NCBI RefSeq assembly: GCF_038025025.1
Contig: NW_027117353.1
Coordinates: 1 to 64,000 of the forward strand
DNA from: Phyllosticta citribraziliensis
Taxonomy: Eukaryota
Direction of reading: 5' to 3'
Length of the DNA stretch: 64,000 nucleotides
Under the pieces are notes generated by a model that searched no databases, was not told where the DNA came from, and saw only the letters and a list, made by a program, of their open reading frames with translations. Positions 84 to 43,194 of this stretch are shown in pieces. Position 1 is the first letter of the stretch, and every line of letters begins with the position of its first letter. The translations under genes were made by a program, and so were the position numbers.

Positions 84-1581
84 GTTATCTATAATAGCTA
101 GGGACTATTATTTATATAGGCTAAACTAGTTATATAAGGATCCTTATCTAGACTAGGGTACTTATAAATCTAGTAATCCTAAGACTTATATAGGTATAGG
201 AGTCTAACTTAGCTAGCTCTCTATAGCTTAGCTAAATAGTAAATATACTAAGCCTTAACTAAAATAGGAGCTATACCTAGCTATTAAAGGGGCTACTAGG
301 GTTTAGAGGTATAGACTAGTTCTTAGTATTATTAGGGTATTTATACCTAGGGTAACTAGGGTACTTATACTAACTTATATATAGGATACTAATAATAGCT
401 TATATAGCTTATTATATACCTTACTTACCTACTTAATAGTATAAATAACTATACCTTTCTTATAATTACTACTATTATCCTATTAGAATAGGTAATCTAG
501 GTAGTACTATCTAGTAATATTTTATTATATTAATAGGCCCCAAGCTATTAGGGGGTTAAAGAGCTTAGTAATCTATTTTACTTATTATAGGATCTTAGGA
601 GTAAGTAGCTTATCCTTATAGGTCTAGTTCTTCCTATAGTCTATAAAGGCTTTAAACTCCTAGGCTAGTAGTATATCCTAGTTACTAATTATATTATCCT
701 TATAAGGATAGTTAGGTATAGTAGGATTTATAGTAGTAAGGTAGAATCCTAGTAGATATAGGGGTAGTTTATAATTAATACCCTAGATAAAAGATTAGAA
801 GGGTATTTTATAGTTTAGGGTAATATATTATCCTAATCCTATAATAGGCTACTAGTCTTTTAATTAGTTAGGGGAGGGTCTTAATAAGGGGCTAGCCTTA
901 TATATCTATATTACTATTATAAACTAGGGCCTTTAGGTAGGGTAGTAGAAGTAACTTTATAGTACTAGTATACTATAATATTCTAGGTAGGTACTCTTAT
1001 ATATATTCCTTATACTATAGCATTAATTAGTAGAGTTATAGCACTTTTAGCTACTACTTTATAACTTATCCTATAGATAGGCATATAAGCTAAATATATC
1101 TTAATTAGACTAACTACCCTAGCTAGGGCTAGGGGCTAACTATACAGGCTAGGGCCCCTACCTATACTAGGGCTACTGCCCTAAACGCGCTAGGCGCTAA
1201 GTAAAGATATACAGATATATAACACTTAGATAGTAATTAGCTTAGTATATTAGGGATAATATAGTTCCTCCCTAGCTAGTACTACACCTTTAAGGGATAC
1301 TAGCTTAGATATTAGCTAGCATATATTAGGTATAGATTTAGTTACTCTATAAATTAGGAGTTTCTAAAGTATAGCTAGCATATAATAGTAGTAACTACTA
1401 AATAGTTAGTAAATATCTAAGTATCTTTAGAGGCCTATATAAGTATTTATAATTTCTTAACTATCTAAATAACTCCTATTATCTTAAGCTTAGTAGTCTA
1501 GTATCTTATCTTAACTCCTAAAAGATACTAGGATAGGAAGGCTATTAGTTTAATAAACTACTTTAAGAAGTCCTTAGCCTT
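84..1581 (-). mobile_element. Older (outer) Ty3/Gypsy element, left part: end of RNase H and downstream pol sequence, RIP-degraded
   Basis: Minus strand ~1560-1235 reads IAFLS*YLLGVKIRY*TTKLK…IFTNY…IIPNILS*L. This de-RIPs to Gypsy RNase H motifs IAFLSR…AETRYWTTELE…IFTDH…PDALSRL. Confidence 0.85.
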
Positions 1582-2049
1582 TATTACGACTTATAGATTT
1601 CTCGTTACATAGGTAAGGGCTAAAGGTAAACTGCTAGAAAATGCGTATATATCTTAATTAAATCTAATAAGTTAAAAGAATAAAATATAAAAGATACTTA
1701 CTACCTATATATTTCCTAGTCCTTCCTTTATACTATTCTACCTCTCGTCCTTTATATAAGGGTCCTTAGTTATTATTAGGTAAGTTATAAAGGTGAGGTG
1801 TTAATGGGCTGTTATATAGTATCTACCTAGGGCTATAGTAGCTGGTGCCAGCCTATAGTAGCTAGTACTAGCCTGCAGGTTTTGGCCTAAGCTATAGTAG
1901 GCTACTACCTAAGGTGAGGCTTATGCTTCCTATAACTATATAATGCTAGGTTTATCTATACTAGCCCTAGTACTTGCCTACTATATAATGCCAGGTTTAT
2001 CTGTACTAGCCCTAGTACTTATATAGGTATATATACGCCTATCATGACA
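1582..2049 (-). repeat. 3' LTR of the inner chromovirus
   Basis: Starts tattacgac (RIP form of TGTCACGAC) and ends catgaca. Colinear with 9415-9882; the differences inspected are C/T or G/A transitions. Confidence 0.96.
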
Positions 2050-3899
2050 TGCCCCCCCTAAAGAGAAGCTGAAATTATAGGAATTAGCAGCTATAGGTGC
2101 TTATATAGGTATAGACTTATAATATATAATAGTGGTAATTTAGTAATTTAAGCATTCTATATAGTTATAAAGTATAATTATTAGTCTAGGTCTATTACTA
2201 TACCATCTCTTTCTATTACTATCTCTTTTACTACATAACCTATAGAAGGTTACCATCTTACTTAGCCATATCTAAAGCTCCCTATTAAAGTACATTATTA
2301 TCCTAGTCTAATTTAGCTATAATCTAGTAAACTAACTATTATACGCAAAGGTTCTAATAATTTAAATAATTTATACCCTACTAATAGTAAAGCAGACATT
2401 CCTGGCCACTATATACTTAATATATCTACTACTTATTATAGTCTAGTCTATTAGGACTCATTACTATTATACAAGAGTTACAGTATTAAGTTATTATTAT
2501 ATAGCATTATTTATAATCTATCATAGTCACTACTTACTTAGAGAGCTATTTTAGCTAGTAGTATCTATAAGGGCCATTATATAGAGTCCTAAGGTAAGTA
2601 AACTTTAATTCTATCTCTTTAGACTATTACTAATTATTATCTAGGCTATTAAGTAGTATTATATATCTAGGTTCTACTACTTTATCATCCCATCTTACTA
2701 ACCGATACAATTATAGAGGAGGACACTTATATAAATACTTAGTCAGGCTAGGCTTTACTTATTTAGCTAGGAACTACTATAGGCTTATCACTTTACCTAC
2801 AGTATACTATAGTATCAGGTTCTGCTTAATTAGTATTATTAGTTATTATACAAGGTTTATTATCCATAGCTATACAGCCTACTACTAACCAGCCTATTAT
2901 ACTATATTACTACTAGTTTACTGTCGCGCAGCCTATTTTAGAGGAAGAAGGTAAAGAGCCTACTTATATGTACTATTATTATAATCCTACAGCTTATTAG
3001 GTTCTAGCAGCTAAGTACTTACTACCTACTACTTTACATAACAGCAGCAACAGTAAGATTTATATTACAGTATTACTAGTTAGTTCTAATAAGGCGCCTA
3101 TTAAATAGGACTTTAAGTTAATACTTTACATCCCTTATAAAAATATAGAGAGTATTATATAAGTAAGTTTATCTTACTAATATAAGGGATTCTTATCTAA
3201 CTAATTATACAGGCACACCTTAGTAGTTCTAAAGTATAAGAGCGCGCTAAATATATCTTGGCCTTAGGTAATAGCATACCTCACTTACATATTATAGTTT
3301 CTACTTAGTAATTTAACTACTTATTAGTTAAAACTTAAGCCAGCTTACATAATGCTTTTCTTATCTAGTATACTAGAATTAATAACCCTATTAGCTATAC
3401 TAAGTGTTATAATAATACTAATACTCGCGCGTTTATTAGTTATTACTACCTGCCTAGTTTCTTATAGGGCTGTTGCGCCAACTGCCTTTAAGGTATAGGC
3501 AACTTAGACTATACTATTAGTAACTTAAAGGGTACTAAGCTGCCTACTTATTATAAGAGGCATAAAGATAAAATTTATATAGAGGAGTTCTAGAACTTAT
3601 ACTACTAAGCTAGGGTAGAGGATTAAACTAATTAGGCTTTAGCTAAGTAGGACATCCTACCTAATAAGCTAGAGGATCTAGAGGAGACTATCTTATATAA
3701 TAATAGTTATAATAAGAAGAAGGGAAAAGGACAGAAGTAAAGGGTAAAAAGTAAAGAAGAGAGAAGTAGGGGATAAGTAGTAAAAAGGAGAGACTAGAGA
3801 GTAGAAGTTAAGGTTAATAGTATTTATATAAGAGTAGATAGTAAACTAATTAGTCTACTTTCTATATCTTTATAATATTTACTATAGGCCTAAGTAACT

Positions 3900-6800
3900 T
3901 ATTTTATTATTACTTTCTATTTTAATCTATAGTTCTTCTTAGAGGAAGGTAGTCTTCTATTTTTCTAGATTTTTTAGTAGTCCTGCTATAGTGGGGTATA
4001 ATAAGTAGAATTCTTTAATTTTCTATAGTGCGCTGCTAAAAGAACTTGTATTATACTACTAGTTATCTTAGTTATATCTAGTCCATTTAACTTAGTATTA
4101 AAGCTTTCTATATAAGACTTAACTAGCTTAAATATAGTCTACTTCCCACTTAGGCTTATCTTAAATAATCTTAGGTTCTAGTTTAGTATATTCTTAACTA
4201 GGAAGCTATTCTATTTCGGCCTTATATAGCCTATTAGTATAGAAAAGGTTAACCATCTTTATATATAAGGGAAGATTAAGGATATAGGAGGGTCCTTCTA
4301 TTCCTATAATCTTAAAAGGTCTAGTATTAGGGAAGTCCAATTTAAGGTTTAGCTAATTAGTAGACCATCTAGTTTTCTTAATATAGATATAATCTCTAAC
4401 TGTAAAGTCTAGCGCGCGACAGTATTTATTGGCTTATTAGTATATATACTCTTAGGATTTAAGAATAAGATTCTTTATAAATTTAAAAGCTTCTTATCTT
4501 CTCTTTTATAGCATTTATACTACTATATAAGCCATCTTTTCTAGTTACTAGGGGGTCTCTATTCTTTATTACTAGTTATAGTACATTTAAGGGGAATATC
4601 CTAACTCAATCTTAAAAGGTAAAAGTCTAGTAGCTTTATAGGGAAGTATTACTTGTGCAAGGTCTATTAATAGTAGAAGATCAGACTAATTATTCTAAAA
4701 GTAATTAATAAAAGGTCTTAATCTTTATATAAGATGCTAATTAATAATCTCTATAATACTATTAGTTTAAGAGTAGTAGGATGAGTTAAAATGCTACTCT
4801 ATACTAGTCAGCTTATACAGTTTATTTATAAATGCTGAGATGAACTAAGGGCCTTAGTTAGATAGGATAGACTTAGGGTTTCTATAAATATAGTAGATAT
4901 ATTTATAAAAGAGTCTAGAGACTCCTTTAGTATTAATCTTCTTTATATAAGGTAAGCTAAAGGTTCTTTAACTTAACTAGTCTATAATAACTAGAATTAC
5001 ATTATAGCCTTTTTAGTCTTTAGGCATCTCTTTAAAATCTATAGCTAAGTATTACTAGGGTCAAGTAGGAATCTCTAGGGGTTATAGAAGGCCTAGGTCT
5101 TTATTATAAAACTCTTTTATTTAGTAGTAAATATGGCATCCTCACCTATAAATATTAATCATATAATTTATAGCTAGCTAGTAGTAATGTTACTTAAGGA
5201 GTTTTCGCATCTTTATAATACTAGGATAGGTAGTTATATAGGTAGTATATAAAGTATTAAGTATTCTTATGTGGAGGTTATTATAATCTAGTATAAAGAG
5301 GGTGCCATATTATAATAAAAGACCATCCTTTAGTTCCTAACTATTTCTTTATTTAAGGTCTTTTAAGAGGGCTTTCTATCTCTAGAGTTCTAATTTAGAA
5401 TCTTCTTAGTTTGTATAGAGAAGTTTATCTAAAAATAATACTAGAGGAGGAAGTTCTTATTCTAAAATAGAAAGAGGGATAATAGTCTCTAGTAGGATAA
5501 GGTATATCTCTTATATAGCCTTTACTTTTTCTTTTTAAGTCTTTAGGTCTTCTTATTTTTAAGTAAGGTAATTAGTAATAATATTTTCCTTTCCTAGCTA
5601 ATAGGAGAATCATATATAGAACTCTATAAAAAACTCAGACTATCTAGCTTGTTATTAATTAAGTTGTCGTTTAGTAGAGTAGTACTCTAATACCTAATAG
5701 TCTATTATTACGAGAAAAGGTTTTTTAAGGCTAATAAGTATTAGTCTCTATTCTTCTAGTCTATTCTTAATAGCCAGCAGTTCTTTATTAGATATTCTAT
5801 AATAAAGTTCTATATTAGCTATTACCTTAGAGTAGAACGCTACTAGTTTCTAATCGCGTAAAGGTTGTTAAAGCTGCATTAAAACGCCTATAGTAACTCT
5901 ATTACTTATATTAGTCTCTATATAAGTGTTAAGAGTAGGGTCATAGTTAGCTAGGAGTGTATTACTATATATTAGCTTCTTAAGTTGTTAAATTGCCTCC
6001 TCTTCTAGGGGTCCTAGTAGTTACTATTTTACCTTAGAGTATAGTTTCTCTAATAGCCAGCTGATTTATCTATAGTTGGGGAGAAATTATTAGTAGAAAT
6101 TATAGAAACCTAGGAAGGATTAAAGAGCTTTAAGGGTTTTAGGTATTAGCTAGTTTTATATAGGTTCTACCTTATCTAGGTCTATCTAAATACCTTCTAT
6201 AGAAACGATATATCTAAGGAACTTTATATAAGTAACTAAAAACTTACTCTTCTTTAAATCCACCTATAGTCCCGCTTTTTATAGTCTTACTAGTACTTTT
6301 TTTACTTGTTCCTCGTGCTCTGTAGGGTCTTTAGAGATAATGAGCATATTATCTATAAAAGCTATAATAAAATCGTCTAAATACTTAAAGAGAACCTGGT
6401 TAATAAAATATTAAAAGGCTACAGGTCCGTTACTTAATCTAAATAGTAAGACACGGTATTTAAATAAGCTATATCTTATATAGAAGGTAGTCTTATCTTT
6501 AGAATCCTTAGTAAGATAAATGTGGTAGAAAGCTTATTAAATATTAAGCTTAGTATAAATTTTACCCTTTCTAATGCGCTAAAGTAACTCTATAATAAGA
6601 GGAAGGGGGTATAAATCCTTAGTAGTTTATTTATTAAGCTGTTAGTAGTCTATATAGAATCTCTATCCCCTACCAGGCTTTTTTACTACTAGAATAGGAG
6701 AAGTGTAGGCGGTAAAGCTTTTAGTAATAAAGCCTTTCTAAATATTCTTAATAATATACTCTTTTATAGCCTTAAGCTGCTCTAGAGACATTCTATAGAG

Positions 6801-9270
6801 AGGACTTAGTAGAAGCTCTAGTAGACTATTATATATAAGAGTTATTTTATAATTAACTCCTATATAATATAGTAGTAGCTTATTAGACTCTATTTTAGAA
6901 AACACATCTTAAAATTCCTTATAAGCAGCTAGTAGCTTAGAAGCTAGTAATTCCTTAGTTTCTTTATCTTTAAGAGCTGCTTAAACTTATATAAGGTTAA
7001 TAGCGTAGATCTCTATTAGCGCAAGTTATAATTTATAGATAGAAATCTTAAAAGCATCTTAATTTTAAAATTCAATTCCCTTAATAACCTATACTAAGGG
7101 AAGAAGGTGTTTATTAAATTTTTTATCTCTATAGTCTATATCTACTTAATATTCTTTCTATAGTTCTTTACTTTATATAGAGACTTTTAGTAGGCATAAA
7201 AGATACTAAAAGGATTAGTTAACTAGTAGCTATCTCTAGACTAGTTTACATTATTTATAGTCTAGAAGAACATCATACTAGTTAAAAAACTATTACCTAA
7301 GAATTATATCATTGCGGCTAATATTATAAATAAAAGTATAAGTAGAAACTATTTAATCTTAGAAATAGAGTTAAAGATAAAAGTAAAAATTAACTTTCTT
7401 ATTTATATATTAGTTAAACCTAGTAATATTAAGCCCTTTACCTATTATTCTCTTTTTTACAGCACCTATAGACTAGAGAGTTAGTAGTAGCTTAGGGTAA
7501 ATAAAACTTATACTACTAGTACTAGTATTAGCTAGGGCATAAATTTCTAAGGCATGGCTGTTAGATATAATTAAGGTTTATATAGTAAAGGGTACACCTC
7601 TAATAAAGTAACTAAGATTTATATAAGAACCTTTAATGTGTATTACTCTAAGTTTAGACCTAAGGTAGGAGACTTTACCTAGGCCTTATTATTTTCTAAT
7701 AAAGACTAATCTCCTTTATTTATATAGACTTCTTCTATACTTTCTTCTTCTACTAACTCTATTGCCTTTATCTCTAGTTGTAGGTATTACCTCTATAAAT
7801 AGCTAAACTGGCCGCAGCAATTATATAGTCTAATCTCTATATAGACTTCTACTTTACCTTTATAGGTTATATTATATAAGGGAGCCCTAGATATAGATCG
7901 CGCCTAGGTATAACTAGAAGATAAAGTACTTATACTACCTAAGGTAGTTATCTTTACTTATTCTTATTATCTCTTCTTTACTTAATCCTTATACAATATA
8001 AGTATTGGTTTTCTATAGTTAGAATAGTAGTTACTAAGACTTTAAGTAATGGGGTAGGCTTATTAGAGGTACTTATAAAAGTTAATATCCTTATCTTACT
8101 CTATAGTAACTATATAGGTTTAAAGGAGAGGATCTATTATATTATAAAAGTCCTCTTTCTACTATTCCTAGGGAAGATCTATATCTAAGGCTAATTATAT
8201 AAAGTTTAATTAAAACTTCTAAAGGTCTGTAGGAATATAGTATATAAGAGAGCGTAACTACTTCTTTATATCCTTATATTTATATAGACTCTAGAGGAGG
8301 TTATCTAGGAATTTAAAGATATCCTTATCTAGAGTGACTTTATTGGCCTTTATATAAGAAGTAAGGAAAGGAGTTAGGTAATATAAGACTTCTCTACTAA
8401 TATAGGAAATAATATAACCTATAATATTCTATTTAGTCTCCTCTGCTATATCTTTAGTAAAGTAATCGTGGTTTTATTTAATTTTATTTTATATAAGGAG
8501 GGTCTAGTATTTATATAAGGGGTCTTCTCTATTAGTAAGAAGAGGAGGATTAGGAACCTTACTACTTTAGTATTTCTTATTACTTAAAGATAAAGTAGAG
8601 GTTTTAGTAGTAGTTTCTCTTATATAGGTAGAAGGATCTTAAGAGAGGGTAATAGGTCTTAGGTGCTAAGCTAATAAAGAGGGCCTAATATATCCTTCCC
8701 TTAGAACTTCCCTAAGTCTATTAGTATAGTTTAAGAGTATTTACTTAAGAGCCTAGTTCTGCCTTCGCGCGCGGTTTAGTTACTACTACACTTAAGACTT
8801 ATTTAAGGATGTAATCTTAGATTTAAATTAATTAATATCTAAGTATAGTACCTTTATAAACGCCTCTGTAACTAGAGCTTAAACTGTATAAGTTAACCCT
8901 AGGTCTTAGGTATATTCTTTTACCTCTACTGCTAAGACTAAGTAGAAATTATATAGGAGAATAGGGGTAGGTCCTCTCTTATTATTATTTAATAAGTATC
9001 TAGTATTACGTGAATCTTTAGTCCCTTTATATAAATCTTATCAAGTTGATTAACTAGTACTAACACCTTTAGTAGTGCCAGATATATTAGCTTTATTCTT
9101 AGCTATACTATCTTTATAGTCTTCTACTTAGAATATCCCTTAAGTAGGTTATAGATAGGATGCCTCCTAAATATTTATATACTACCCTATAGCCTTAATT
9201 AAAGACTTCTATAGTTAATATATACTTAATACTCCTTAGTCCTTAGATGACACTGATGCGCCTAATAAAG
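3900..9270 (-). pseudogene. RIP-inactivated gag-pol of the inner chromovirus (ends approximate)
   Basis: Minus-strand relics: Zn knuckle YNCCGQFSYL*R*Y (CX2CX4HX4C, ~7784-7825); protease ALANTS (ALADTG, ~7520-7538); RT FKYRVLLFRLSNGP and AFIDNMLIIS (~6333-6463); integrase GLL*PLEIPT*P**YLAIDFKEMP (~5020-5092); chromodomain KWEVDYI…L*Y*VKWTRY (~3980-4150). Confidence 0.92.
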
Positions 9271-9414
9271 ATAACTTAGGTTTACTAGGGAAAAGTAATA
9301 AGTAGTCTTATATAAGACTATAGCTATGTATAATATTACTTAGGTTAAATATTATAACACCTTTATAGGTAAAGAAGTAGGATAGAGCTAAAACTTAGAA
9401 TAATCTTTTATATC

Positions 9415-9882
9415 TATTATAACTTATAGATTTCTTATTATATAGGTAAGGGCTAAAGGTAAACTGCTAGAGAATATATATATATCTTAATTAAATCTAA
9501 TAAGTTAAAAGAATAAAATATAAAAGATATTTACTACCTATATATTTCCTAGTCCTTCCTTTATACTATTCTACCTCTTATCCTTTATATAAGGGTCCTT
9601 AGTCATTATTAGGTAAGTTATAAAGGTAAGGTATTAATAGGCTATTATATAGTATCTACCTAGGGCTGCAGTAGCTGGTGCCAGCCTATAGTAGCTGGTA
9701 CTAGCCTATAGGTTTTAGCCTGAGCTGTGGCAGGCTACTACCTAAGGTAAGGCTTATACTTCCTATAACTGCATGATGCTAGGTTCATCTATACTAGCCC
9801 TAGTACTTACCTACCGCGCGATGCTAGGTTTATCTATACTGGCCCTAGTACTTATATAGGCATATATATGCCTATTATAACA
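9415..9882 (-). repeat. 5' LTR of the inner chromovirus
   Basis: Starts tattataac, ends tataaca and is followed by the TSD gcctt. Same length as the other LTR. A TATATAAA-like box lies on the minus strand near 9584-9591. Confidence 0.96.
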
Positions 9883-9887
9883 GCCTT

Positions 9888-12800
9888 CTTAAGCTAATTT
9901 ATAGTAGGGTTTTTACCCTCTATATTCTCTATATTTATAGTAGGAGTCTAATCTTCTATAACTAGTTTAGGATTACCCTTTATATAATAGGCTATTATAC
10001 TAAAACCTAACTCCTTACTAGTATCTATATCCACAAAGAGGGGTCTCTTAGGTATATAGTAAAAATACTATTATATTTTATAAAGGGTTATCTATATAGC
10101 CTTAAATAATACTACTAATACTAGGGAGTCTAGTAATACCTATACCACTATATATTAGTAATATACTTACTTATCCTTAGGAGTACTTTATAGTAGTATA
10201 GTTTTTATAGCTTCTAATAGTTCTACTAGTTATATATAGTAGGGATAGTTATCCTATAGCTATCTAATAAGCCCTATAAAGGTTTCTAGTTCTTAAAGGG
10301 TCCTTAGGAATTTAAGGTCCTTTAAAGCTTAGATCTTAGCTTCTAATATAGTAATACTAAACCTAGATACCTACTATCCTAATAGTATAATAGATAGGTA
10401 CCCTAACTAAGACTTCTTAGTACTTAGGCTTATATTTATACTATTAAGGATGGTAAATACTTTCTTAAGGTAGTCTAGGTATTCTTCTAGTATTTTAGAG
10501 AAAATAGTAATATTATTAATATATATTTATATAAATATATAGTAGTCCTAAAGAAGAGTGTTATATTACTATTATATATACTATATAGAGTTATAGTATC
10601 CTATTAGGGCTATATTTAACTATTCTATACCCTAGTAGGTAAGTATAATTAGCTTATATTAGTTATTAGGATAGATCTACTATTAATAGAAGAAAGAGTA
10701 GTATCTACTACTAAGATATAGAGGTACCCTTAGATATTAGAGATAATATTAGTAGCTAGAAGGAGTAGCTATAAGTCCTTCTTACTAATAGTATTAAGGG
10801 CTTATATATCTATAACTACTTATCCCTTCTACTCTAGGGTCCTATTCTCTCTAGGGACTAGCTTCTATACTATAAATATAGAGAAGCTAAGATAAGTATC
10901 TCTATATACCTACTCTACCTTTCCTTATTTATATATAGGGTTAAGTATAGTGTCTTAGAATTTATAGTCCCTTTAGGATATAGGATATAGTCTTTAATAT
11001 TTAAAATATTTATACTAGCCTAGGATTAATAGTATCTTTATCTAATCCTTTTTAGAAACCTTAATAAATCCCTTTTAGTTATAGAAAAGGTCTTAAAACT
11101 AATCTACTAATTTCTAGTATAGTGACTAGACCTTAGGGGTCCTAAATATAGTAATACTATTATTAAGCTTAACTTCCTCTATAATAAGGATAGTAGGATT
11201 TAAACTAGCTAGGCTATATTCTATATCTATAAGGTAGTATACCCTATTAAATTCTACTATAATAATACTACCTAGCTATATATTCTAAGAGATTATAAGA
11301 GACTAATCTAAGTTATTTCTAGTAATAATCTAGTTTATATCTATACTAGTAACTATAGTATAAAGGGTACCTCTCTTTTATAGGAAAGGTATAGGATATA
11401 TAGTTTTATTAGGATAGAACTTATATACTTAGTAAAGGAGGTCTAGTCCTAGGATTTTAATAAGTAGCTTTACCTAAGACTATAGGGGTATTATTATATT
11501 CTTTATAGTATATATATATTAATAGATAGGAGTAGAAAATAGCTTAGTTATTATACTAGTATTTAGTCCCTTAGGCCCTATATATAGCTATATTACTTAA
11601 TTCTAACTAATATTAATAATTACCCCTTTAGGATATAGGAGGTTATTTCCTATAAGTAGAGGGATATTTAACTTATTAGTTATCTAAGTATAGTAGGGAA
11701 GAAAGCTAAGTACCTATCCTACCTTAGTTTATCTAGGTAAGTAAAGGGGAAGTATTATATAGTTAGTATATTCTATCTTATATTCTACTCTAGTAATAAT
11801 TATAGATTTCTTAAGTATTATTACCTTAATATTAGGGAGCTTTTCCTTTAAAAATATTCTATTTACTATTAAGGATAAAGTACCTATATTAAGATACCTA
11901 ATATCTACTATTCCTATAGGGGTTAGCCTAAAACTAATCTCTATAGATTAATATTTAGGAAATAGAGGTAGATTATCCCCTATACTAAGTCCTATAAAGA
12001 CTATAGATAACTCTAAGATTAGTACCTTTAGTTCTATATTAGCTATAGCCTTATCCTTTATCTTCCTAAGTTTACTATTAACTAAGTTAAACCCTAATAT
12101 AATAAGGTAGACTATTTAGTAATAGTATCCCTAACTAAGTATAGAAGTACCTTACCTATAGTACTATATTACCTATACTATAAAGCTAAGGGGAAAGATT
12201 AATACCTACTAGAGGGCTATAACTACTAGAGTAAGGATATACTAAGAGGGGATAATATATTACTTAGTTCTATTATCCTAATAGCTTTTAGATACTAGTT
12301 ACCTACTAACTAGATAGTACTCTATTTAGGTCCTAAATTCTTAAGTAGCTTAATACTTACTTAGTTTAAACTATATTTAAAACTATTATTCCTTAGGTAC
12401 TAGTATAACTTATATTTAGAAGGGAAGCTTATCTAGTAGCTATTATATAGCTTCTAGAGATTAAGTACTATTATATTACTACTAGGAGTATAGTTAAAAG
12501 TATTATCCTAGGTAAGTATATATCTATACTAGGAGTAGTAGTTAGCTCCTATTATAATTATAGGCTTACTATTATTTAACTATAGTTTCTCCTTATTAGT
12601 TATAGGGGTCTCTATACTAGCATCCTTATTACTTTTAGTATTTTTACTTTCCTTATTAGTATCCTTATACTTACTTTTAGAGCTATCCTAGGTATAGTAT
12701 TATATATATATAGTAGGTTTATAGTTATAGTTATAGTTATAGTTATAATAATCCTTAGGCTTTAAGTAGGACCTAGAACTAGACCCTTTTAGGTTAGGAG

Positions 12801-15800
12801 TAGGGAGCATACCCTACTTAGAATAGGTCACCTATTTTATATTACTTAGTCCCCTAGTACTTATATTATACTAGGATACTAAGTATACTCTATTAGATTA
12901 ATTAAAAGGCTAGCTAGTAGTCTATATTAAAGTATATCCCTAATTCTAGCCCTTAGGGAAGAATGCCTTACTAGTAGTAGTTATATTAAAATATTAGGAT
13001 AGGTATTCCTAAGTCTACTAGTAACTCTTAATATTCTTAATAAATACTTAGACTATAGTATTTACTATAGGTTTAGGGATCTACTACTAGAAGTAAGGGT
13101 TAATATATATATAGGTATTAGCTAACTAATTATATATAGTAGAGAAACTAGTAGCTTATCCTAGATATATATAGGTAATAATAAAGTCCCTTATACTTTT
13201 AGCATAGATCTCTAGGAGCCTAAAGTATACTCTATTTAGTACTTTAATAGCTTTATATTATATTATACTAAAGTCTTTATATAGTAGTAAAGTCTAATTA
13301 TTAATACTATATCTAGTATATATAAAAGCTCAGTCTTCCTCTATAAATTAGGAGGTATACTATATATTTAATAATCCTTTTAGGTACTTCTATAGGTTAG
13401 TATAGATTAGATCTACTCTATAGGTAGTATAAGCTATTAAGGTACTATTAATAAACTACTCTATAGTATAGTATAAGACCTTCCCTTATTTAGTTATACT
13501 ACCTCTATAGCTAATATCTTCTTCTAGTAGATTAGGGTTAAAGTAACTAATATTATCTAGATAGAAATACTAGGCTATCTACCCTATATATAGTCCTAAG
13601 GCTAAGGCCTAGTTATACTCCTTATTATCTCCTATACCTTATAGGGGAATAAATTAAAAGGTAGTAGACTATTTATCCTCTTTATCCCTATCCTTAGAAG
13701 GAGAGGAGCCTAGTAGGAGTAGTTCCTCTATATTATACTAGGTATACCTTTCCTAGTATTACTATTCCTAGTTTTTACTAGAGAAGTAGTTCCCTTTCTA
13801 TAGCTATAATAGTCTTAGTAGTACTCTACCTCTACCTTAAGGTATACTTATTTTAAGTATAGATAGGTATATACTAAGCTTCTTAAGTTACTTATTAACC
13901 CCCTCATTTATTATAGTAAGGTTTATTATCTATACTTTCTATTATTTAAAGAATATATCTTAGAGTATATCTAGCTTTACTCCTAAAGATTCTAAGGTTA
14001 TAATAGGCTACTAGATCTCCTTAGTCTAGTCTATAGTACTATACTAGTTATATATATATAGGAGTATTATATTATATAGGGGTAGCTAATTATAGTATAT
14101 ATACCTTAGGGGAGGATTCTAGTTTCCTAGTAGCTATTAGTAGGAGAAAGGAAGACTACTATATATATATTAGCTAGAGGTCTAAGTAAAACCTAGGCCT
14201 ATACTACTCTAGAAAATATTAGGTAGTTAACTAAAGGGTTAATAAGAATAGCTATAAGGAGGCCTATAGCTAGGTAGAAAGGGAGGTTATCTAAACTAGC
14301 CTTTATAAGTATAGCTAGTACCTTCCCTAAAGTTTAGTAGAATATACTAGTCTTTAAAATTATTATCTATAGAAGAATAGAGACTCTATAGATTATATTC
14401 TAACTTATTATCTATAGGTAGGCTACTAGTATAGGTAACTAGCTACTTTCCTTTAGAAGGTTTTAATTAGGAAGTCTAAAGAGGTATTACCTACTTATCT
14501 TAGGGCTAGTATAGCCTTATAGTTATATATATCTATAACTAGAGTTATTAATAGGTATATATAGAAGTAGAGTAATATAAAGAAGATAAATATCCTTAAG
14601 TAGATATAGGTATTAGTAAAATAGGTTATTAAGGCTCTATAGATAGTATAGGTTATAAATAAATTAATATATAGTATAGAGATTTTAATTAAGGTTATTT
14701 ATAAAGTAAGGTAATAGGTATTTATACCTAAAAAGAGGGTAGATTTACTAAATAGGTAACTAATTAGCCCTTTCCCTATTTAGGTATAGTATAGCTACTA
14801 ATAGGAAGAGTAGGTCTTAATAGTTCTTAGGTTAACCTTAGTATAACTTCTAAGGTAATTATAGTAGGTCTTAAAGGTAACTAAAGTACTATCTTAGCTT
14901 ATAGCTAGGGAGGTACTTTAAGGACTATACCTAAGGCTAGTACCTCTAGTATAGTAGGATATTCTAGTATAGTTAGAGAAAGGTACTAGAATAGATTATA
15001 TAGGGACTAGGATACCCTTAAACCTATACTTATATTATATTAGCCCACCTCCTTATATAGTATAGTTAGAACTAGATTTAGTAGTAAATCTACTATATTA
15101 GTAGAGATTAGTATACTTAGTATTATAGTCCTTATACCCTTAGCTAGAGCCTCTTCTATATATTTCTATTCTATAACTACTAGGTAATTCTCTAGGAATA
15201 GTTTAGTATAGGTAGTATTAACTTATTCTAAGACTTATTAAAAAGTAGCCTAGTTTATACCTCCTATAGAGTCCTAGTATACTAGATAATCTAGGTACCT
15301 TTAAGAGGTTATAGTTTATTAAGTAAATACTCCTATACTATCTAGGGGCTTAAATATTTCTATAATAAGGTTAATATAAGTCCTAGTTACTAGGGTAATC
15401 TATTTAAGCTATTACTTATATTTACTATAATAGAGGAAGGCCTTAAGTTATTAGATAAATAGTATATCCTCTTCTAAAACTAATATAGTAAACTTATTAT
15501 TTAGGGACTATATTATAGATAGTTCCTTATACTAGTACTAAGTATTAAAGGAAGGGGTAAGTATAGTAGAAGTAAGGGTCCTACTATAATAATACTAGTA
15601 CTAGGTTATATAAGAAAGGAGATCCTTACTAGGTACTATATAGAAGTATATTATTAGCTATTTTAAGGGGATCTTCCTAGGTTTTAGTAGAAGTAGACTT
15701 ATAGTATTTATATATTAGTAGTAATAAAGGTCTTAGATATAGAAGGGATACTATAGTAAAAGGAAGTACTATAGTACTTTTAGCTACTAAAAAATATTAT

Positions 15801-15964
15801 AAGTTTAGTTAGGATATCTTTTCTTAAGCCTAGATTATATTATTATTATTTTTATCTTAGCCCTAGGGCCTTACTTATTCTTATCTACTTACTTATACTA
15901 CTAAGCCTACTAGCTAGTACCTGCCTTACTTACCTAAGGCATCCCTAACCATCTATAGACTGCA
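9888..15964 (-). mobile_element. Older (outer) Ty3/Gypsy element, right part: RT, start of RNase H, probable gag and 5' region (right boundary tentative)
   Basis: Minus strand PLFVDIDTSKELGFS (RNase H start, ~10005-10045) continues into the segment left of 1581. RT IYINNITIFSK (VYIDDITIFSK, ~10495-10527) and VVIDI*ALN (~10795-10820). A TGCA at 15961-15964 may be the LTR end. 14000-15960 is not decodable. Confidence 0.75.
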
Positions 15965-16870
15965 ATACTTATCTAAAAGGGTACTCCTACTTTTAGCTTC
16001 TTTTATATTAATTATCTAGTAAATAATATCTAGTAGGTATATAATATAAAGTATTAGAAGCTTCTTATTAATATAGCCTATATTAAGAAGATATTATAAT
16101 ATAATTATATAATAAAGAAGATTACTTAACTTAAGCTAAACTATATAAAGTACCTACTTTAAATTAACCTAGTATAGTAGGTATTTAGCTATTAATTTAG
16201 TAATACTATATACTTTAGCTAAATAATAAATAATATAGTTAAGTTAGTTAATACTAGTATAATTAAAATATATAATAATCTTCCTTTTTAGGTACTTATA
16301 GAGGTATACTACTATATAATAGAGAAGATAGGAAGATATATACTTACTTATTACCCTTTATAACTATATTAAAATATACTAATAACTAGTTATAGCTATA
16401 AGCTATAGGAGATATATATAGCTAAATTAGTTTAATAATAGGTTATTTATAACTCTTTTATATAAAGGACTATTATCTATTCTTCTACTAAAAAGATTTT
16501 CTCTATTAAGAATATTAATAGAGGTAATATTAACTTTTATACTTATAATTATTATAAGGATATACTCTTCCTATATAAATATATATATACTTTCTATTAG
16601 GTATTAGTTAATATACCTAAGCTATAAGGGAGTAATATATAGGCTTTAGAAAATTACTATAAGGTATATAGTTACTACCTTATACCTATTAAGATAGATA
16701 ATCTAAAGGAGTAGAATATTTTACTACTATTTTTAAAGCCTTACCCTAGCTAGCCTATTAAGAAGAGAAGAGAGAGGACTATTTAAAAATAAGCTTATAA
16801 ATATAGACTTTATAGTTAATAAGGGTATAAGTATACTATATATTAAAGGAGGTATAATCTATTTTAGGCT
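15965..16870 (+). pseudogene. RIP-inactivated Mutator-like (MULE) transposase, C-terminal half
   Basis: One plus frame carries, in order: FFYINYL (CxxH, ~15998-16018); IINNIVKLVN (TNNxxESxN, 16223-16252); SWIM finger YTY…LYKYI (CxC…PCKH, 16538-16585); ILLL…PS*PIKKR (LPP…GRPxKKR); and a CX2CX4HX4C knuckle (16802-16843). All needed changes are RIP transitions. Confidence 0.85.
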
Positions 16871-16920
16871 TTAAATAAGAGTAGTAAAACTAGATTAGTA
16901 AGACTAATATTAATACTAAT

Positions 16921-17100
16921 AAAAGTAGTAAAACTAATACTAATAAGAGTAGTAAAACTAATACTAATAAGAGTAGTAAAACTAATACTAATAAGAGTAG
17001 TAAAACTAATACTAATAAGAGTAGTAAAACTAATACTAATAAGAGTAGTAAAACTAATACTAATAAGAGTAATAAGACTAATATTAATAAGAGTAATAAT
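16921..17100. repeat. 24-bp tandem repeat, about 7.5 units (aagagtagtaaaactaatactaat)
   Basis: Units start at 16921, 16945, 16969, 16993, 17017, 17041 and 17065, with a partial unit at 17089. Confidence 0.95.
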
Positions 17101-18013
17101 AGTATTACTATTTAAATATATATCTTTAACTATAAGCTAGAAGAGTCTAACCTTAGCTTTATCCTCCTTTAAGAGACTCTATTATTATTACCTTACTCCT
17201 TACCTCTCTTATTAATTATAATACTATCTATACTAAGTATCTTTATAATATCTCTATAGTAACTACTAACTCTATAATAATTACTATACTAATTAAAGTA
17301 TATAAGGTATAAGGTAGACTATAAAATATAAATAAGGTAGATTAGGAGGTAAATAGTAAATAAAGAATAGATTAAATAAGTAAGAGAGGGTAGATTATAG
17401 GTTTATTAAAAGAAGGAGGTAGATTTTATAATAAGGAGAGTATAGATTATAAGTTTTATAATAATAAAAAGTATTTTTAGATTTAATTATACTATCTAAG
17501 ATAACCCCTATTTTATACTTATTTTTATAGGAAAAACTACCCCTATTTATAAATAATAAAACTAACTAGGGTTAAGACTTCTTATATAATAAGATAGGCT
17601 AAAATTAGGCTTAATATTAATAATTAAGAAATACTAAGCCTTAGGAGGTTAAAAAATAGTAAGTATATATTTAGGAGCCTAAATAATTAGGGGGTAAAGA
17701 TATACTCTTTAAGATATAGGGGTTATATAGGGGTATTTTAGTACTAGGATTATACTAGTATAGTCTATTTCTAGAGTATAGTAATAGAACCTTAGATAAT
17801 TAAGGGGTAAATATAGTTAAAGATATATATATATAAGTAGGAGTAAGTTAATAGTAGTAGTAGTAGTAGTAGTTTTAGTAGTAATTATAAAAGAACTTAA
17901 AAATAATAAATAACTTACCTAATTAAGATAGGATATAAGGAGGGTATATTTAGTTTAAGAGGGTAGATAGTAAGTAGGGTGGTATAATATTATGTAGATT
18001 AAGAATTTAACCC

Positions 18014-37255: not shown

Positions 37256-38786
37256 TCACCTGACTTTCCTGCGGCTGGCGTTGGCTGCATCCATGAGCGC
37301 AGACGAGTTTCCACCATCAATAGGACTGACAGGCTCTCCATTAAGAAGCAACTGAGGCTTGCTCTCGGGGGCCAATCCATTGGTGGATGCTTGAGGCTTT
37401 TCAGTCTCCTCATCTTCATCTTCGTAGTCGCTGCGCTCGTCTTTGACTACCTCTCCCCAGGTTGCGACAAATCTCCATGCGATGCGCAAAATGAGGAACA
37501 GCCAGAAGAGGTTGACAGCCTGTAGAGAGGCCAAGAGCGAAAACGTAATGTACTGAGAAATCCAGCACTTGTACTGCTGCGTAACCCAATTGAGCTCGAA
37601 CGGTCCGACGGAGGAGAATTCGCCGTTGATCATGGACCAAAGAATCCTGAGGTTGATGTAGTGACGCAGGTACGTCCAGACGAAGATGAAGAAGCCGAAG
37701 TAAGGCCCGACCAGGGTCGAGTCAAGGTAATTGAGTGTTTTAGAAGTCTGTTTAGAAGTCAGTCGATGAGCTATTTCCAACACAAATCCAAAGAGAACAT
37801 ACCGCCAAGAAAAAGTCGCTGATGTCATGGGTGATGTACACCGCCAGTCCCATGTATGTAAAGTGGAACCGGTAGCTCAGCCAAATCAACGCAATTGTAA
37901 TGATGTGATGCATGACGAGCTCCTTGAAATCTTTTCTCGGCTTTTCCAACATGAGGAGAAGGACTATGGCCTGCTGCGCCCAGTAACTAGCTTGGAGCAG
38001 GTAGTATGCCTTGAAGATCGCCTCGTGGGTCTTGTGCGGAAATCCTTCGTACATGCCAGTCGTGTTGAAGTACCAAACCGGTGTTCGCGACATGACGTAT
38101 AGACCAAAGGGACCGAAGATGCCAAAGTAGATGGCCGTGTAGACTTGTTCCATGAAGCGGGCCTGCTTTGCGCGCGACTTTATTCCACAGTAAATGGCCA
38201 GAGGTCGGATGACGCGTTGCATGAGGAATTCCCGGGTGAAGGAAAGCACGACGATGTAGAAAGCAACAAAGGCAAAGTCCTTGCCACCCTTTCCATAGTG
38301 TATAGGAGCGCCGGGGTCGGCGCTGGGGTCCTCTGGAAGTGGGTAGGAAAGGAAGAGGGCGGCGTGGAGCGGGTTGGACTCAGAGGGGTTGACGAGGTAT
38401 AAGGAGACTATCGTCGAGACGATGAGCAGCGGATTGAGCCAGGTGTGTCGCAGGGACAGCTTCCACCATCTCCGGATGAGGGACTTGGCCTTCCGGCGCT
38501 TCGATGGACGGCCCTGTTTGCTGCTGTCGGAGCGCTGGAAAAGGCGAATCAGAGAATCGGCCGCGGCCATGCAGGAGATGCGGGTCCTTACAGCTACCGA
38601 AGATGTAGATGGTGGTTTGTTGTCGAACGCCGTGGCCAAGGCTACAGTTCCAGTGTCTCCCCTAGGATCGTCGCCGAGGTTGCTGGACTTTCTCTGGCGG
38701 CGCAAGCCTTTCGACTGGGCGTTGTTGGAGTGTTCCTTGCGCACGGGCGAGAGGGGAGGAAAGGGTTCGGTTGCAGAGTCGGCCAT
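37256..38786 (-). CDS. LAG1: Ceramide synthase (sphingosine N-acyltransferase, TLC domain), Lag1/Lac1 type
   Basis: Lag motif EKPRKDFKELVMHH…THDISDFFLA|TSKTLNY and multiple TM segments. Introns 38535-38591 and 37748-37802. Confidence 0.93.
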
Positions 38787-39156
38787 TGTCGCGGTTTCGG
38801 GCTGGTTGGATGTGGGTTGGCTGAGAGAGAAAGCGCATGTGCGGATCGGCCATGGTGTTGGAAAATGCTCAGGGCAGGCCCGCAGCCGCTACTTACCGCC
38901 GCACCGCCGCGTCTCGTCCGCCTTGCACTGCCACCAACTTACCGCAACACCCGCCCGATTACTTGCAGCTCATCACGACTGAGTTGGATTTGCATATACA
39001 GTTAATTGAACATGACGTGCCTAGTCCGCCCGGTGCTTTGTACACCTGTGGCTCCAGCCTCCTGGCCTTTTGCTTCTGCACCCCGGTTCTCTGCCTTTAT
39101 CTCCTCGCCTCCTGGCCCTCTGCACTGTGGTCTATTGCCTCTTCTTGCTCAAGCAA

Positions 39157-40680
39157 TTACTTCTCCGCCGCCTCGCGCTCTGCCTTTTCCCGCTCCCGCC
39201 TTTCCTTGTCTGCCGCCTCCCACTCCCGCCGTATCGTGGCGGCGTAATCCACCAAGTCTGGGAGCTTGGACTTGTCCACGACCACTCTGGACATGTTCGG
39301 TTTGTACCTCTCCACAGCCAAGCCCTCGTGGAAAATGGCCTCTGGCCAACTCTCAGCATGCTCCAGATCCACAATGTTTGCCCATTTGATTTCGACACCG
39401 TCGAGAGTAAACGGCCGTGGCCGGTTTTCCCGCAGCATTGCTCTTTGATGATTGGGTCCTTTCTTGGGAATCGCACCCTTTGGCTTCTGGGACGGCGGGT
39501 AGAGCGCGTCCAGTATGCTCTCATTCGTTTCCCTCAGCGCCTCTTTTTTCTCTTCCAGCTGCCTTTCCAACTCCGCCTTCTTCCAGTTGAACTCCGCGAT
39601 GGTCTTCCCGAGTTTCCGTTTTTCGACCGCCGCCTCACGGATTTCCTCCGCGAATTCGGGTTTGACATTTCCCTCGTCATCTCTCGCAGACGTTGTCTTG
39701 AGGAATTCTTTCTTGCTATCCACGAGCTTGCGCCATTGCTGCTGTTCTCGGTGGACGTTTCCCAAATGAGCGCCTAGTATGCCAAGTTGCTTCCTCAATT
39801 CCCTAACATCTTCATAGAGGTCGCGTTCCTGTCGCAGGCTGTCCAAGTATGCGAATTCTCGGTCGCGCAATTGATTCCTGATTGGCGTGTAGTCTGTCCG
39901 TATCTGGTTGATCACTTCGGCGACGTCGATAGCAGGACGGGAGAGAATTCCGTGTCTTCTGAGCAATGTGAACGCTAGACGCAATCTCTGTTGTCCCGAC
40001 TTCACGCTTTCGTCGACAGGCTCGGTTGATTTCAAGAGACTCTGCAAGTTCTCGCCCTGCCCGTTCTTCTCTAGGCGATGGAGGTTCCGGAGCAGTGATC
40101 GCAGCCAAAAGAGGTCCTCGACTTGGTCGTCCTTGGCCATGTACCTTTCGAATTGTTGCGAAGACGACTTATTCTGTAGTTCCATCGCTCTTGCAATAGC
40201 TGCGATTGAATTCGCCTTTTGGTCCATGATGATCTTTGCGCGCTCCTTCTTCGAGGGCATCCTGTCCGATCCCTGCAGCTGCTTCTGCTTCTTCTCGGGC
40301 AGCGCCCCCCAATCCTTGTTTTCGTTTTGGCTCCAATACAGTTCATGGAGCTTCTTGAAATCCAGCAGCTTGAAGTACGCATCCCGGGCCTGGTTTTCGA
40401 AAGGGAGGGTAACGACTGCGAGAGGGCGCCACACGTCCTTGCGGAGCTTTGAAGGCAACGACTTTTTGCCAGCGAACGGAAGTTGTTGCAGATGAGATCC
40501 CTACAATTCCTGGTCAGTATTTGTTGATCTTGAGTCCATTGGAATGCCTACGCGCAAAACGCGGTCGTTCAACGAGTATAGAGTCTGGTTCGTTCGAAAG
40601 TGGCAGTAGACGAATACTTGGCGAGCGGCGTCCTTGGAGGCTTCGACGCCGCGGGCGGCCTGTGTCCCTAGGCCCGACAT
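39157..40680 (-). CDS. MHR1: Mitochondrial large ribosomal subunit protein mL67 / Mhr1, ~490 aa
   Basis: Exon 1 (40680-40552) VFVYCHFRTNQTLYSL, intron 40501-40551, then QLPFAGKKSLPSKLRKDVWRPL, KKLHELYW, MDQKANSIA, IKWANIVDLEHAESWP. Confidence 0.88.
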
Positions 40681-41015: not shown

Positions 41016-43194
41016 ATGGCCAGCAGCCCTCGCAGCTCGGACGACAACACAACAAGGCGCGAGAGGCCGTGGATTCTGCCCTACGTGCGCTTACCACTTG
41101 CTGTAAATCTGTTGTTGCTCCAGCTAACCTGCCGTCAGAATCGTAGAATCAGGCATCTCCACGGCATAACCATTCGCAACTTGGCCCTGGTCCAGCCCTC
41201 ATCGAGACCCCGCGGCAAGACAATTGACGACGATGCGATCCCCTCGACCCTCAAGACGCCTGCAAAGGCCTTGGCCCAGCGTGAGAGCAGAAAATTGGAG
41301 CATGCCCGCTCATCCACTGATCTGAGGGCCAGGGACTTGCATCCCATAGGCGAGTCAGCGGACAAATCCCAGGACATCACTCTAGATGCTCCAGTGAGGC
41401 CCAGCATAAGTAGACTGCGCCGTCGTAGCACCATGACATGGTCCGGAGCCAGCCCTTTGGAGAGACAGAGGAAGCTTGAAGATGTCGCGGAAGGCCGTAT
41501 GGCCAACATCTTTTTCTCGTTGCATGTGGCAGAGAACGCAGGTCAGTCTTGCACCAACACGTCAACGTGCTAGGCTGATGATGTGATTAGATCCCATTTA
41601 TGTGAGCGAGGAAGTCGAAAAGGCAATGGTAGGTGCATCCGACATGGCAGCACCACCGCCTGGGCTAAACTTTTGCGCAGAACCCAAATTTCAAGTCTTT
41701 CGACCTCGAACCGTGGGGCCCCTCAGTCACAAGGCTTGATGAGATTACTCTAAAAGTATGGGCCAAAACTCGGGTCATGGATAATCACCAATACCTCCTC
41801 AGTCTCACTGCGAGCTTTCGTTCGTTGCAATTCATCTCCAGATCTGTAAGGCTCAACGATGACCATTGTCCCCAAGCATTTACTTACCACACTTTACACA
41901 GCTCGAAAAGTTTCATCACCCGTTCCCTCCGAACTCAATCCTCTTTCACTTCGATGATGGCATCTTTACGGCTTTCACCGACGTCGCTTCAAATGACACG
42001 CATTTCAACATGACGGAAATTCAGGCCAAGGCCTCCTCAAAACCGCAACCCTCGTCTTCCTATGACCAACTCATGCGGCTCTCAACACTCGACGACTGCA
42101 TACAGGACGCGCTGGCAACACGGGACAAGCTGACGGCAGACATAGCATCCGTCCTAAATAAAAATCAAGAGGCGCTATCCACCGAGCACAATGTCTCCGA
42201 AGGAAGAGAAAGATTAAAACTGGTTGAATCTACAGTGGCTGCCCAGCGAAAGCGGCTAGAGGCTGCTCGAAAGAAGCGGGCTGAGTTGCAAGCAAACATA
42301 GACTCGCGACGGGAAGCAATGCTTACAGGCCGAGCCTCACAGGACAGGCTTGCACAAGACATCGCCCACGGCCAGGAGCAGCTCAAGGAGCGCGTAACGA
42401 CGACACGGCAAACGGAAGAAGAAATTCTCGGCCACAGACGGCGCGTCTGCGAAGACTTGCTCAAAATATACCCCATCGAGTCGATCCAGGGGCGCCCTCT
42501 GGCTTTTACGATATGCGGACTTTACCTGCCAAACTCTGAATTCGACGACGTAGACGAAACCGTTACATCGGCTGCTTTAGGATACGCTGTCCAGGTTGTC
42601 GCCCACTTGTCGATATACCTCTCCATACCCTTGCCGTACCCTGTGCAGCCGCGCGGGTCGACATCGATAATCGAAGACCCCATCTCCATGACAGCCGGAC
42701 CGCGCACGTACCCCCTCTGGATGAAGGGCGCCGTGCGCTACCGCTTCGAATACGCCGTCTTCCTGCTCAATAAGGACATTGAGATCCTGTCCAACGCACT
42801 GGGGCTCAAGCCGCTCGACATACGGCACACGCTGCCCAACCTCAAGTACCTGCTCTACGTGGCGACGGCGGGCAAGGGCGGGATTCCAGAGAGGAAATCG
42901 GGAGGATTCAGGGCACTACTGAGGTACCCTGGTACTCCTACTACCCCCGGCGGCAGAGACAGAGAAGAGACGACGGCGGGTCTTTTTCCGAAGAACAACG
43001 CGGCTAACGGTAGTGGTGGCCATCAAGGGCGTGGAGGCAAGATAGGGAGAGACGCGCTGCCGAGCGCCACCGCTACCGCCGCGGGAGTCGATGATGTCCT
43101 CGAAGACGGCAGTAGCTTGCTGCTTGCTGGCTGTGCCGTCGCCGAGACGTCGAGCTTTAAACCGCAAAAGCCGCCTTTGAGCGGTCTGTCCTGA
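41016..43194 (+). CDS. VPS38: UVRAG/Vps38 subunit of PI3-kinase complex II, 5 exons
   Basis: RRIRHLHGITIRNL, FFSLH, IYVSEEVEKAMNPNF, coiled coil, then SAALGY…LSIPLPYPVQPRGSTS…RFEYAVFLLNKDIE…TLPNL. Four short GT-AG introns between 41085 and 41901. Confidence 0.9.

Follow-up and report, generated by a model that had tools for sequence, protein, structure and literature searches.

What occupies the roughly 1.8 kb between the end of pol and the 3' long terminal repeat (LTR) of a Ty3/gypsy retrotransposon in the fungus Phyllosticta citribraziliensis? The element lies on the minus strand of contig NW_027117353.1 (RefSeq assembly GCF_038025025.1), of which positions 1 to 64,000 of the forward strand were analysed here (the window). 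An earlier, sequence-only reading of the window had noticed the surplus DNA and had taken it for an intron-containing cargo gene on the plus strand, that is, antisense to gag-pol. We find that the observation was largely correct and that its interpretation is partly supported. The extra region belongs to the whole element family, and its plus strand shows a weak signal that resembles coding sequence and is coherent in frame. We favour, tentatively and with slightly less than even confidence, that it is the fossil of a spliced, lineage-specific antisense accessory gene that was destroyed by repeat-induced point mutation (RIP).

The element itself is a complete, RIP-degraded Ty3/gypsy chromovirus (Table 1). 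It is bounded by a target site duplication (TSD) and by two LTRs in direct orientation that read TA...CA on the plus strand, the TA fitting a TG altered by RIP, and contigs from other sequencing runs connect position 1582 to the sequence preceding 9415. Both LTRs contain a 45-nt tandem duplication (1935-2020 and 9768-9853; 1.9 copies with 95% matches in the 3' LTR). Pol was translated in a single minus-strand frame over 2050-9413 with X placed at stops. In this translation Pfam recognised RVT_1 (E 1.2e-18), RT_RNaseH_2 (4.8e-13) and RT_RNaseH (2.3e-12), while rve and Chromo were not detected. The same frame gave 1082 matches in a large protein library, of which the best (1.6e-214) covers 99% of the query at 38% identity; the matching proteins carry PF00665 and some of them also PF00385, and the alignment with the four best intact relatives continues through the integrase and chromodomain columns. 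The pol of these relatives ends at a position corresponding to ~3855 and not at ~3900 as initially read; the surplus of about 1.8 kb in front of the polypurine tract (PPT) was thereby confirmed. The gag frame, upstream of pol, matches 45 of 80 related loci taken from metagenome contigs (best E 2.7e-16), and a zinc-knuckle remnant of the CCGQ... type was seen in it by eye. A scan of viral contigs with the RIPped pol yielded 66 pattern matches, none of which was confirmed. All copies of the element seen are now dead.

Is the extra region a property of the family or of this copy? Contigs from four DNA sequencing runs with four organism labels were placed on the element at a likeness of at least 80% (1170, 270, 14 and 17 pieces). 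Of the 30 bins into which 1500-4500 was divided, they span 30, 30, 24 and 26, respectively, and they are continuous with the LTR and with pol. In the set labelled X1, 201 of the 213 variant places are transitions, the type of change made by RIP. Since contigs of all four runs cover it, the extra region is an integral part of a multi-copy family, as the sequence-only reading had supposed, and no private insertion. The same reading had named a separate insertion confined to this copy as the finding that would tell against it. That the 1.8 kb represent such a nested element is scarcely credible and in practice refuted by the continuous coverage in all four runs; nothing more than the unusual length of the region speaks for it, and neither terminal direct or inverted repeats, nor an internal TSD, nor a transposase or other transposable element (TE) domain was found in the region. 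A second copy of the region is absent from the window, the best non-self match being 54 nt long. Among the related loci, 28 of the 80 have enough flanking sequence and 20 of these 28 have a repeat pair around pol; the distance from the pol end to the downstream repeat is at most 152 nt in 14 of the 20. One of the closest relatives has only 1073 nt from the pol stop to the next gag start, LTR included. As judged from these sequences, the extra region is lineage-specific, since the closest un-RIPped pol relatives have no such region.

The evidence for a coding origin is indirect. The period-3 chi-square over 2050-3900 is 20.2 (p 0.0025; reached by 10 of 1000 Markov shuffles), compared with 29.9 over the 5.4 kb of gag-pol, so that the signal of the extra region is at least as strong per base. 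Codon tables with simulated RIP, trained on the ORFs (open reading frames) of intact relatives and of the host, pick out the true frames of pol and gag; for the 3' region they always rank frame +1 first, although its total score is negative. RIP makes only transitions, and the purine/pyrimidine (RY) string of the region is therefore identical to that of its ancestor. RY models trained on TE sequences recover pol and gag as well, and they give a strong frame-specific signal for frame +0 in 3231-3860 (score 16.8-18.3 vs 4-5 for the null). Scored by maximal segments against Markov nulls, several frames of either strand stood out, and so did the 'negative' flanks; this test was not relied on.

The pre-specified test was a frame-switching dynamic programming (DP) analysis of the whole of 2062-3854 on both strands, with models trained on TE and host ORFs together. 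With the RIP-invariant RY codon model, the plus strand scored 5.8 and the minus strand 0.0 (null 0.1 +/- 0.3), and with the RIP-simulated nucleotide model the values were 5.6 and 0.0; in neither case did any of 100 shuffles reach the plus-strand score. The true gag obtained 6.1 (RY) and 11.4 (nucleotide) in the same tests. A block-shuffle null was equally clear (0 of 300, p = 0.003). The path runs in frame +1 to ~3156 and then in +0, and the codon scores put the change at ~3156-3222. DP with host-trained models likewise gave a +1 segment (2068/2194-3156); the top plus-strand DP segment was +0 at 3222/3348-3851. The stop fraction in 2062-3162 is 0.060 in frame +1 and 0.085-0.169 in the other five frames, of which the minus frames have 0.128-0.169. 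The peptides quoted in the sequence-only reading are present in the translation, and its succession of frames, +1 followed by +0, is the best-scoring one in the RIP-aware codon models. Its frame junction at 3490-3575 has to be moved to the position given above, where a motif lies that it did not list.

This motif is the second of the two intron-like motifs in Table 1. It had been found earlier by a blind pattern scan for GTAAGT..YTRAY..YAG on both strands of the 18-kb AT-rich block in which the element is embedded, and it coincides with the frame switch of the DP path (3156/3159). Putative exon B closes on a codon boundary at 3162, and 3213 opens a +0 codon. When the motif is removed, all four models give a higher best single-frame score; among the possible 50-nt cuts only 1.1-2.2% match this effect, and these all lie at 3139-3204. 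The other copies point in the same direction. Among the variants listed, and in small numbers, four of the five length changes within the putative exons are multiples of three (-6, -12, 123 and 84 vs 94), the changes of 123 and 84 nt being skips within exon B found in one contig each, whereas two independent sets of small indels at 2607-2622 lie inside motif 1.

Table 1. Features of the element, of its extra region and of the neighbouring host DNA (window coordinates)
Feature	Position	Strand	Remarks
TSD GCCTT, left copy	1577-1581		read directly; matches 9883-9887
3' LTR, 468 nt	1582-2049	-	90% identical to 9415-9882 over 468 nt
PPT, G-rich	2050-2062	-	minus strand ...TTTAGGGGGGGCA, directly before TGTCA of the LTR; role presumed from position
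Extra pol-to-3' LTR region, ~1.8 kb	2063-3854		family-wide; missing from closest pol relatives
Putative fossil exon A	2341-2593	+	frame +1 (codon starts mod 3 = 1); lowest stop fraction, on host-trained DP path
Intron-like motif 1, GTAAGT...TACTAAT...CTAG, 51 nt	2594-2644	+	frame kept
Putative fossil exon B	2645-3162	+	frame +1; codon models, DP, stop fraction
Intron-like motif 2, GTAAGT...CTAAC...ACAG, 50 nt	3163-3212	+	pattern scan; shifts +1 to +0
Putative fossil exon C	3213-3740	+	frame +0; Lys/Glu/Gly-rich tail, TAA at 3738-3740; strand uncertain
gag-pol	3855-9414	-	pol codon starts mod 3 = 2 (reverse transcriptase, RNase H, integrase, chromodomain); gag in the mod 3 = 1 frame
5' LTR	9415-9882	-	90% identity to 3' LTR
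TSD GCCTT, right copy	9883-9887		matches left copy
TLC-domain protein	37752-38888	-	Pfam; host gene beside AT-rich block
Mhr1-like protein	39157-40500	-	Pfam; host gene beside AT-rich block
ATG14/VPS38	41863-43194	+	Pfam; host gene beside AT-rich block
Trehalase	48271-50172	-	Pfam; host gene beside AT-rich block

The gene that we propose would have consisted of three exons (~2341-2593, 2645-3162 and 3213-3740; 1299 nt in total) separated by two short introns that correspond to motifs 1 and 2. The ATA at 2341 is a possible RIP-mutated ATG, and we infer from it the start codon. We assume that the gene was transcribed towards pol while the family was active, from a promoter of its own in the ~280 nt beside the 3' LTR. 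Introns that are antisense to the genomic RNA of a retroelement survive retrotransposition, because in this orientation they cannot be removed from it by splicing; those of the putative gene would have outlasted retrotransposition in this way. Its product is predicted to be an orphan protein of ~430 residues with a Lys/Glu-rich tail; if Grande gene23 is a guide, it may have regulated the cycle of the element itself as a nuclear or nucleic-acid-binding factor. Splicing, transcription and function of the putative gene are thus inferred. An anti-silencing factor, as suggested by the sequence-only reading, we count as unsupported, and a captured host gene, its other suggestion, is unlikely because no homologue was found.

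Several results weigh against this antisense gene. An intact ORF is lacking: the longest stop-to-stop run overlapping 1900-4100 comprises 84 aa, and the model coding sequence has 26 internal stops in 433 codons. Pfam reported nothing at E <= 1 in six frames of the extra region. Searched with phmmer against 1.84 billion protein representatives, frame +1 (617 aa with X) had no match at E <= 0.001, the +0, +2 and minus frames not being searched there; a word search with frame +1 in protein libraries gave no match either, and six-frame translations of 2050-3860 had no match among the 80 related loci (best E 0.08). Pol and gag, although RIPped to the same degree, were easily found. The 51-nt motif 1, which the sequence-only reading had called a well-formed intron, is present as described; however, the intron pattern occurs five times on the plus and three times on the minus strand of the AT-rich block, at a Markov-1 expectation of 6.4 +/- 2.6 per strand. 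At this chance frequency motif 1 is no evidence on its own, and its removal does not raise the coding score. The two weaker intron candidates of that reading (3268-3327 and 3490-3555) were not matched by the pattern scan.

The statistics have weaknesses as well. With stop codons excluded from the score, frame +1 obtains 16.7 vs a null of 15.7 +/- 3.5 (p 0.35), which means that its support is largely the stop deficit already seen in the sequence-only reading. In 2401-3000 all three plus frames have 6.5-8.0 stops per 100 codons vs 14-17.5 in the minus frames, and the deficit is therefore partly a strand-wide composition effect. In the pol region one antisense frame has the same stop fraction as the true frame (0.088), and in the chromodomain part of pol there are as many stops as in wrong frames. 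Stop density by itself is non-discriminating. The controls of the codon models were also imperfect: host-trained RY models fail the pol control and find the correct frame in only 14 of 24 host ORFs, a reversed nonsense string outscores the plus reading under these models (8.4 and 6.1 vs 1.4 and 2.4), the integrase part of pol escapes the RY test, and the 'negative' flank 84-1581 scores in the nucleotide models too, a flank that may itself be TE-derived. A hand count of RIP-polymorphic sites by codon position (40 of 309 variant rows) was not significant when the CAG/CAA repeat at 3042-3051 was counted once. As an observation on this repeat, the present copy has kept CAG CAG CAA CAG at 3042-3053, and other aligned copies have T at 3042, 3045, 3048 and 3051, which indicates that RIP changed CAR to TAR in most copies.

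Taken together, such findings leave considerable room for a region that never encoded a protein, i.e. a long untranslated, regulatory or small-RNA-producing 3' part whose coding-like signals arose by chance and local composition. We judge this to be an appreciable possibility and still improbable. It would account for the absence of an ORF, homologue or domain in the searches made, for a stop deficit that all three plus frames have in common over part of the region, for the loss of significance of frame +1 once stops are ignored, for the chance frequency of the intron motif and for the poor behaviour of several controls, and it has a precedent in the long non-coding regions between pol and the 3' LTR and in the non-coding antisense transcripts described for other retroelements (PMC7264820). 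It is less easily reconciled with a phase-coherent period-3 signal (p ~0.003-0.01), with a DP signal, specific to strand and frame, that in the RIP-invariant alphabet is as high as for the true gag, with a 50-nt motif that lies exactly where the frame switches and has the length modulo 3 needed for it, and with the length changes of other copies, which are mostly multiples of three.

Coding ancestry need not imply an antisense gene, either. The region could have extended pol at its C-terminus, it could, at least in 3213-3854, have been a sense ORF3, or it could be an inert piece of some gene that the founder element had captured and that was passed on without a function. In 3213-3854 the stop fraction is 0.070 in +0 and in the minus pol frame alike, which also qualifies the second half of the frame assignment, and host-trained models flag frame -2 at 3327/3351-3845/3854. 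The strand is thus ambiguous beyond 3213, and the last third could be a remnant of the sense strand. A sense ORF3 after pol exists in a related subgroup of fungal chromoviruses. Moreover, a Gln-rich sense ORF would gain many TAA and TAG stops under RIP, so that a high stop density on the minus strand is not decisive. Nevertheless we consider these alternatives unlikely: the pol of the four closest intact relatives stops where the extra region begins, the minus frames are rich in stops throughout 2062-3162, the minus strand scored 0.0 with the models trained jointly on TE and host ORFs, neither the ORF3 of the subgroup nor any other related locus showed similarity to the region, and a conserved captured host gene should be detectable, as gag and pol were. 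For these reasons the fossil antisense gene is the reading that we tentatively keep.

An antisense gene at this position is in itself no novelty, fungi included. The plant elements Grande, RIRE2 and Retand have been described as carrying antisense ORFs (aORFs) between pol and the 3' LTR, and so has, with brtn, the fungal element Boty (PMC7264820, PMC11963269, PMC8365987, PMC4227169), and the layout proposed here would fit this class. Grande gene23 is reported to be driven by a promoter of its own and to encode a nuclear protein; beyond this, the function of plant aORFs is given as unknown, and a regulatory role has been proposed (PMC7264820, PMC11963269). Like the maize Grande gene23 and the aORFs of rice RIRE2 and of Silene and other Retand elements (TRP28 domain), the present case combines an unusually long pol-to-3' LTR region with an antisense frame, here a putative one, which in the plant families is found as an ORF in most copies. 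Contrary to these Tat/Retand-lineage elements with regions of 2.9-6.6 kb, however, it concerns a fungal chromovirus with ~1.8 kb. There is also no match to Transposase_28 (PF04195): Pfam returned no family at E <= 1 for the three plus frames of 2050-4000, where it should be noted that RIP hid rve and Chromo from Pfam too. Rfam likewise found nothing at E <= 1 in 1500-4000. Introns go unmentioned for the plant aORFs in the main text of PMC7264820 and PMC11963269, and a literature search for fungal antisense ORFs with introns found nothing relevant, nor did one for Phyllosticta transposable elements find anything specific.

The closest parallel by description is brtn, the antisense gene of Boty in Botrytis and Sclerotinia (PMC8365987, PMC7264820, PMC4227169). 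Both elements are fungal chromodomain Ty3/gypsy elements with an additional gene, here a putative one, between pol and the 3' LTR and antisense to gag-pol. The described Boty hosts are Leotiomycetes whereas Phyllosticta belongs to the Dothideomycetes, and the copies of the present element are all RIP-dead. The nearest pol relatives of the present element lack the region, which argues for an acquisition separate from brtn. The full scenario would be that the Phyllosticta chromovirus lineage independently gained a two-intron orphan antisense gene, unrelated to brtn and absent from the nearest relatives, and kept it through amplification and across several species until RIP inactivated every copy; as a whole we regard this as possible but doubtful. 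The sense ORF3 mentioned above was seen in metagenome contigs (L026, 6825-8513, 563 aa, with matches in L019, L039, L033 and L030). That of L026 is rich in Lys, Asp and Glu and has no Pfam match. It shares with the putative antisense gene the position downstream of a related pol, and it differs by its orientation, which is that of gag-pol, and by the absence of similarity to the extra region.

If the antisense gene was real, it would be a second, independent case of an antisense accessory gene in a fungal LTR retrotransposon, here with introns. Together with the sense ORF3 of sister lineages it would imply that accessory genes have repeatedly been taken up behind pol in fungal chromoviruses, much as in complex retroviruses and in the plant Tat/Retand elements, and it would support a repeated gain of regulatory genes behind pol by non-retroviral retroelements. 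Apart from this locus, RY codon statistics, which RIP leaves untouched, can recover reading frames from fully RIP-mutated DNA, as the recovery of the true gag frame indicates, and the approach may help the annotation of AT-rich isochores in fungi.

The element is part of an AT-rich block that makes up the first 18 kb of the window (GC 0.21-0.33); the gene-rich remainder has a GC content of 0.49-0.64. In the block TpA is in excess and CpA and TpG are nearly absent, a dinucleotide bias that is the pattern produced by RIP. The trehalase ORF at 48271-50172 in the remainder is 100% identical to the P. citribraziliensis protein and 86% identical to its counterpart in P. capitalensis. The rest of the block (84-1581 and 9883-18000) had no Pfam match at E <= 0.01 in six frames. 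Coding-like segments were flagged by the RIP-aware codon models on the minus strand on either side of the element (396-824 and 9885-10667), consistent with an insertion into older, degraded transposon DNA. Positions 1-83 hold the terminal part of a further LTR of this family (93% identity to 1980-2049, same orientation), truncated where the window begins. It represents a solo LTR or else the 5' LTR of an adjacent copy; the sequence from 84 on differs from that from 2050 on. Farther inside the block, very strong period-3 signals (z up to 13.9) were recorded at 12301-13200, 11101-12000 and 14401-15300, in RIP-like DNA within the part that lacks Pfam matches; these segments are probably what is left of other degraded coding elements, or else repeats whose period is divisible by three. 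Finally, a tandem array is located at 16857-17144; its ~12 units repeat every 24 nt, with spacings of 9 and 15 from start to start.

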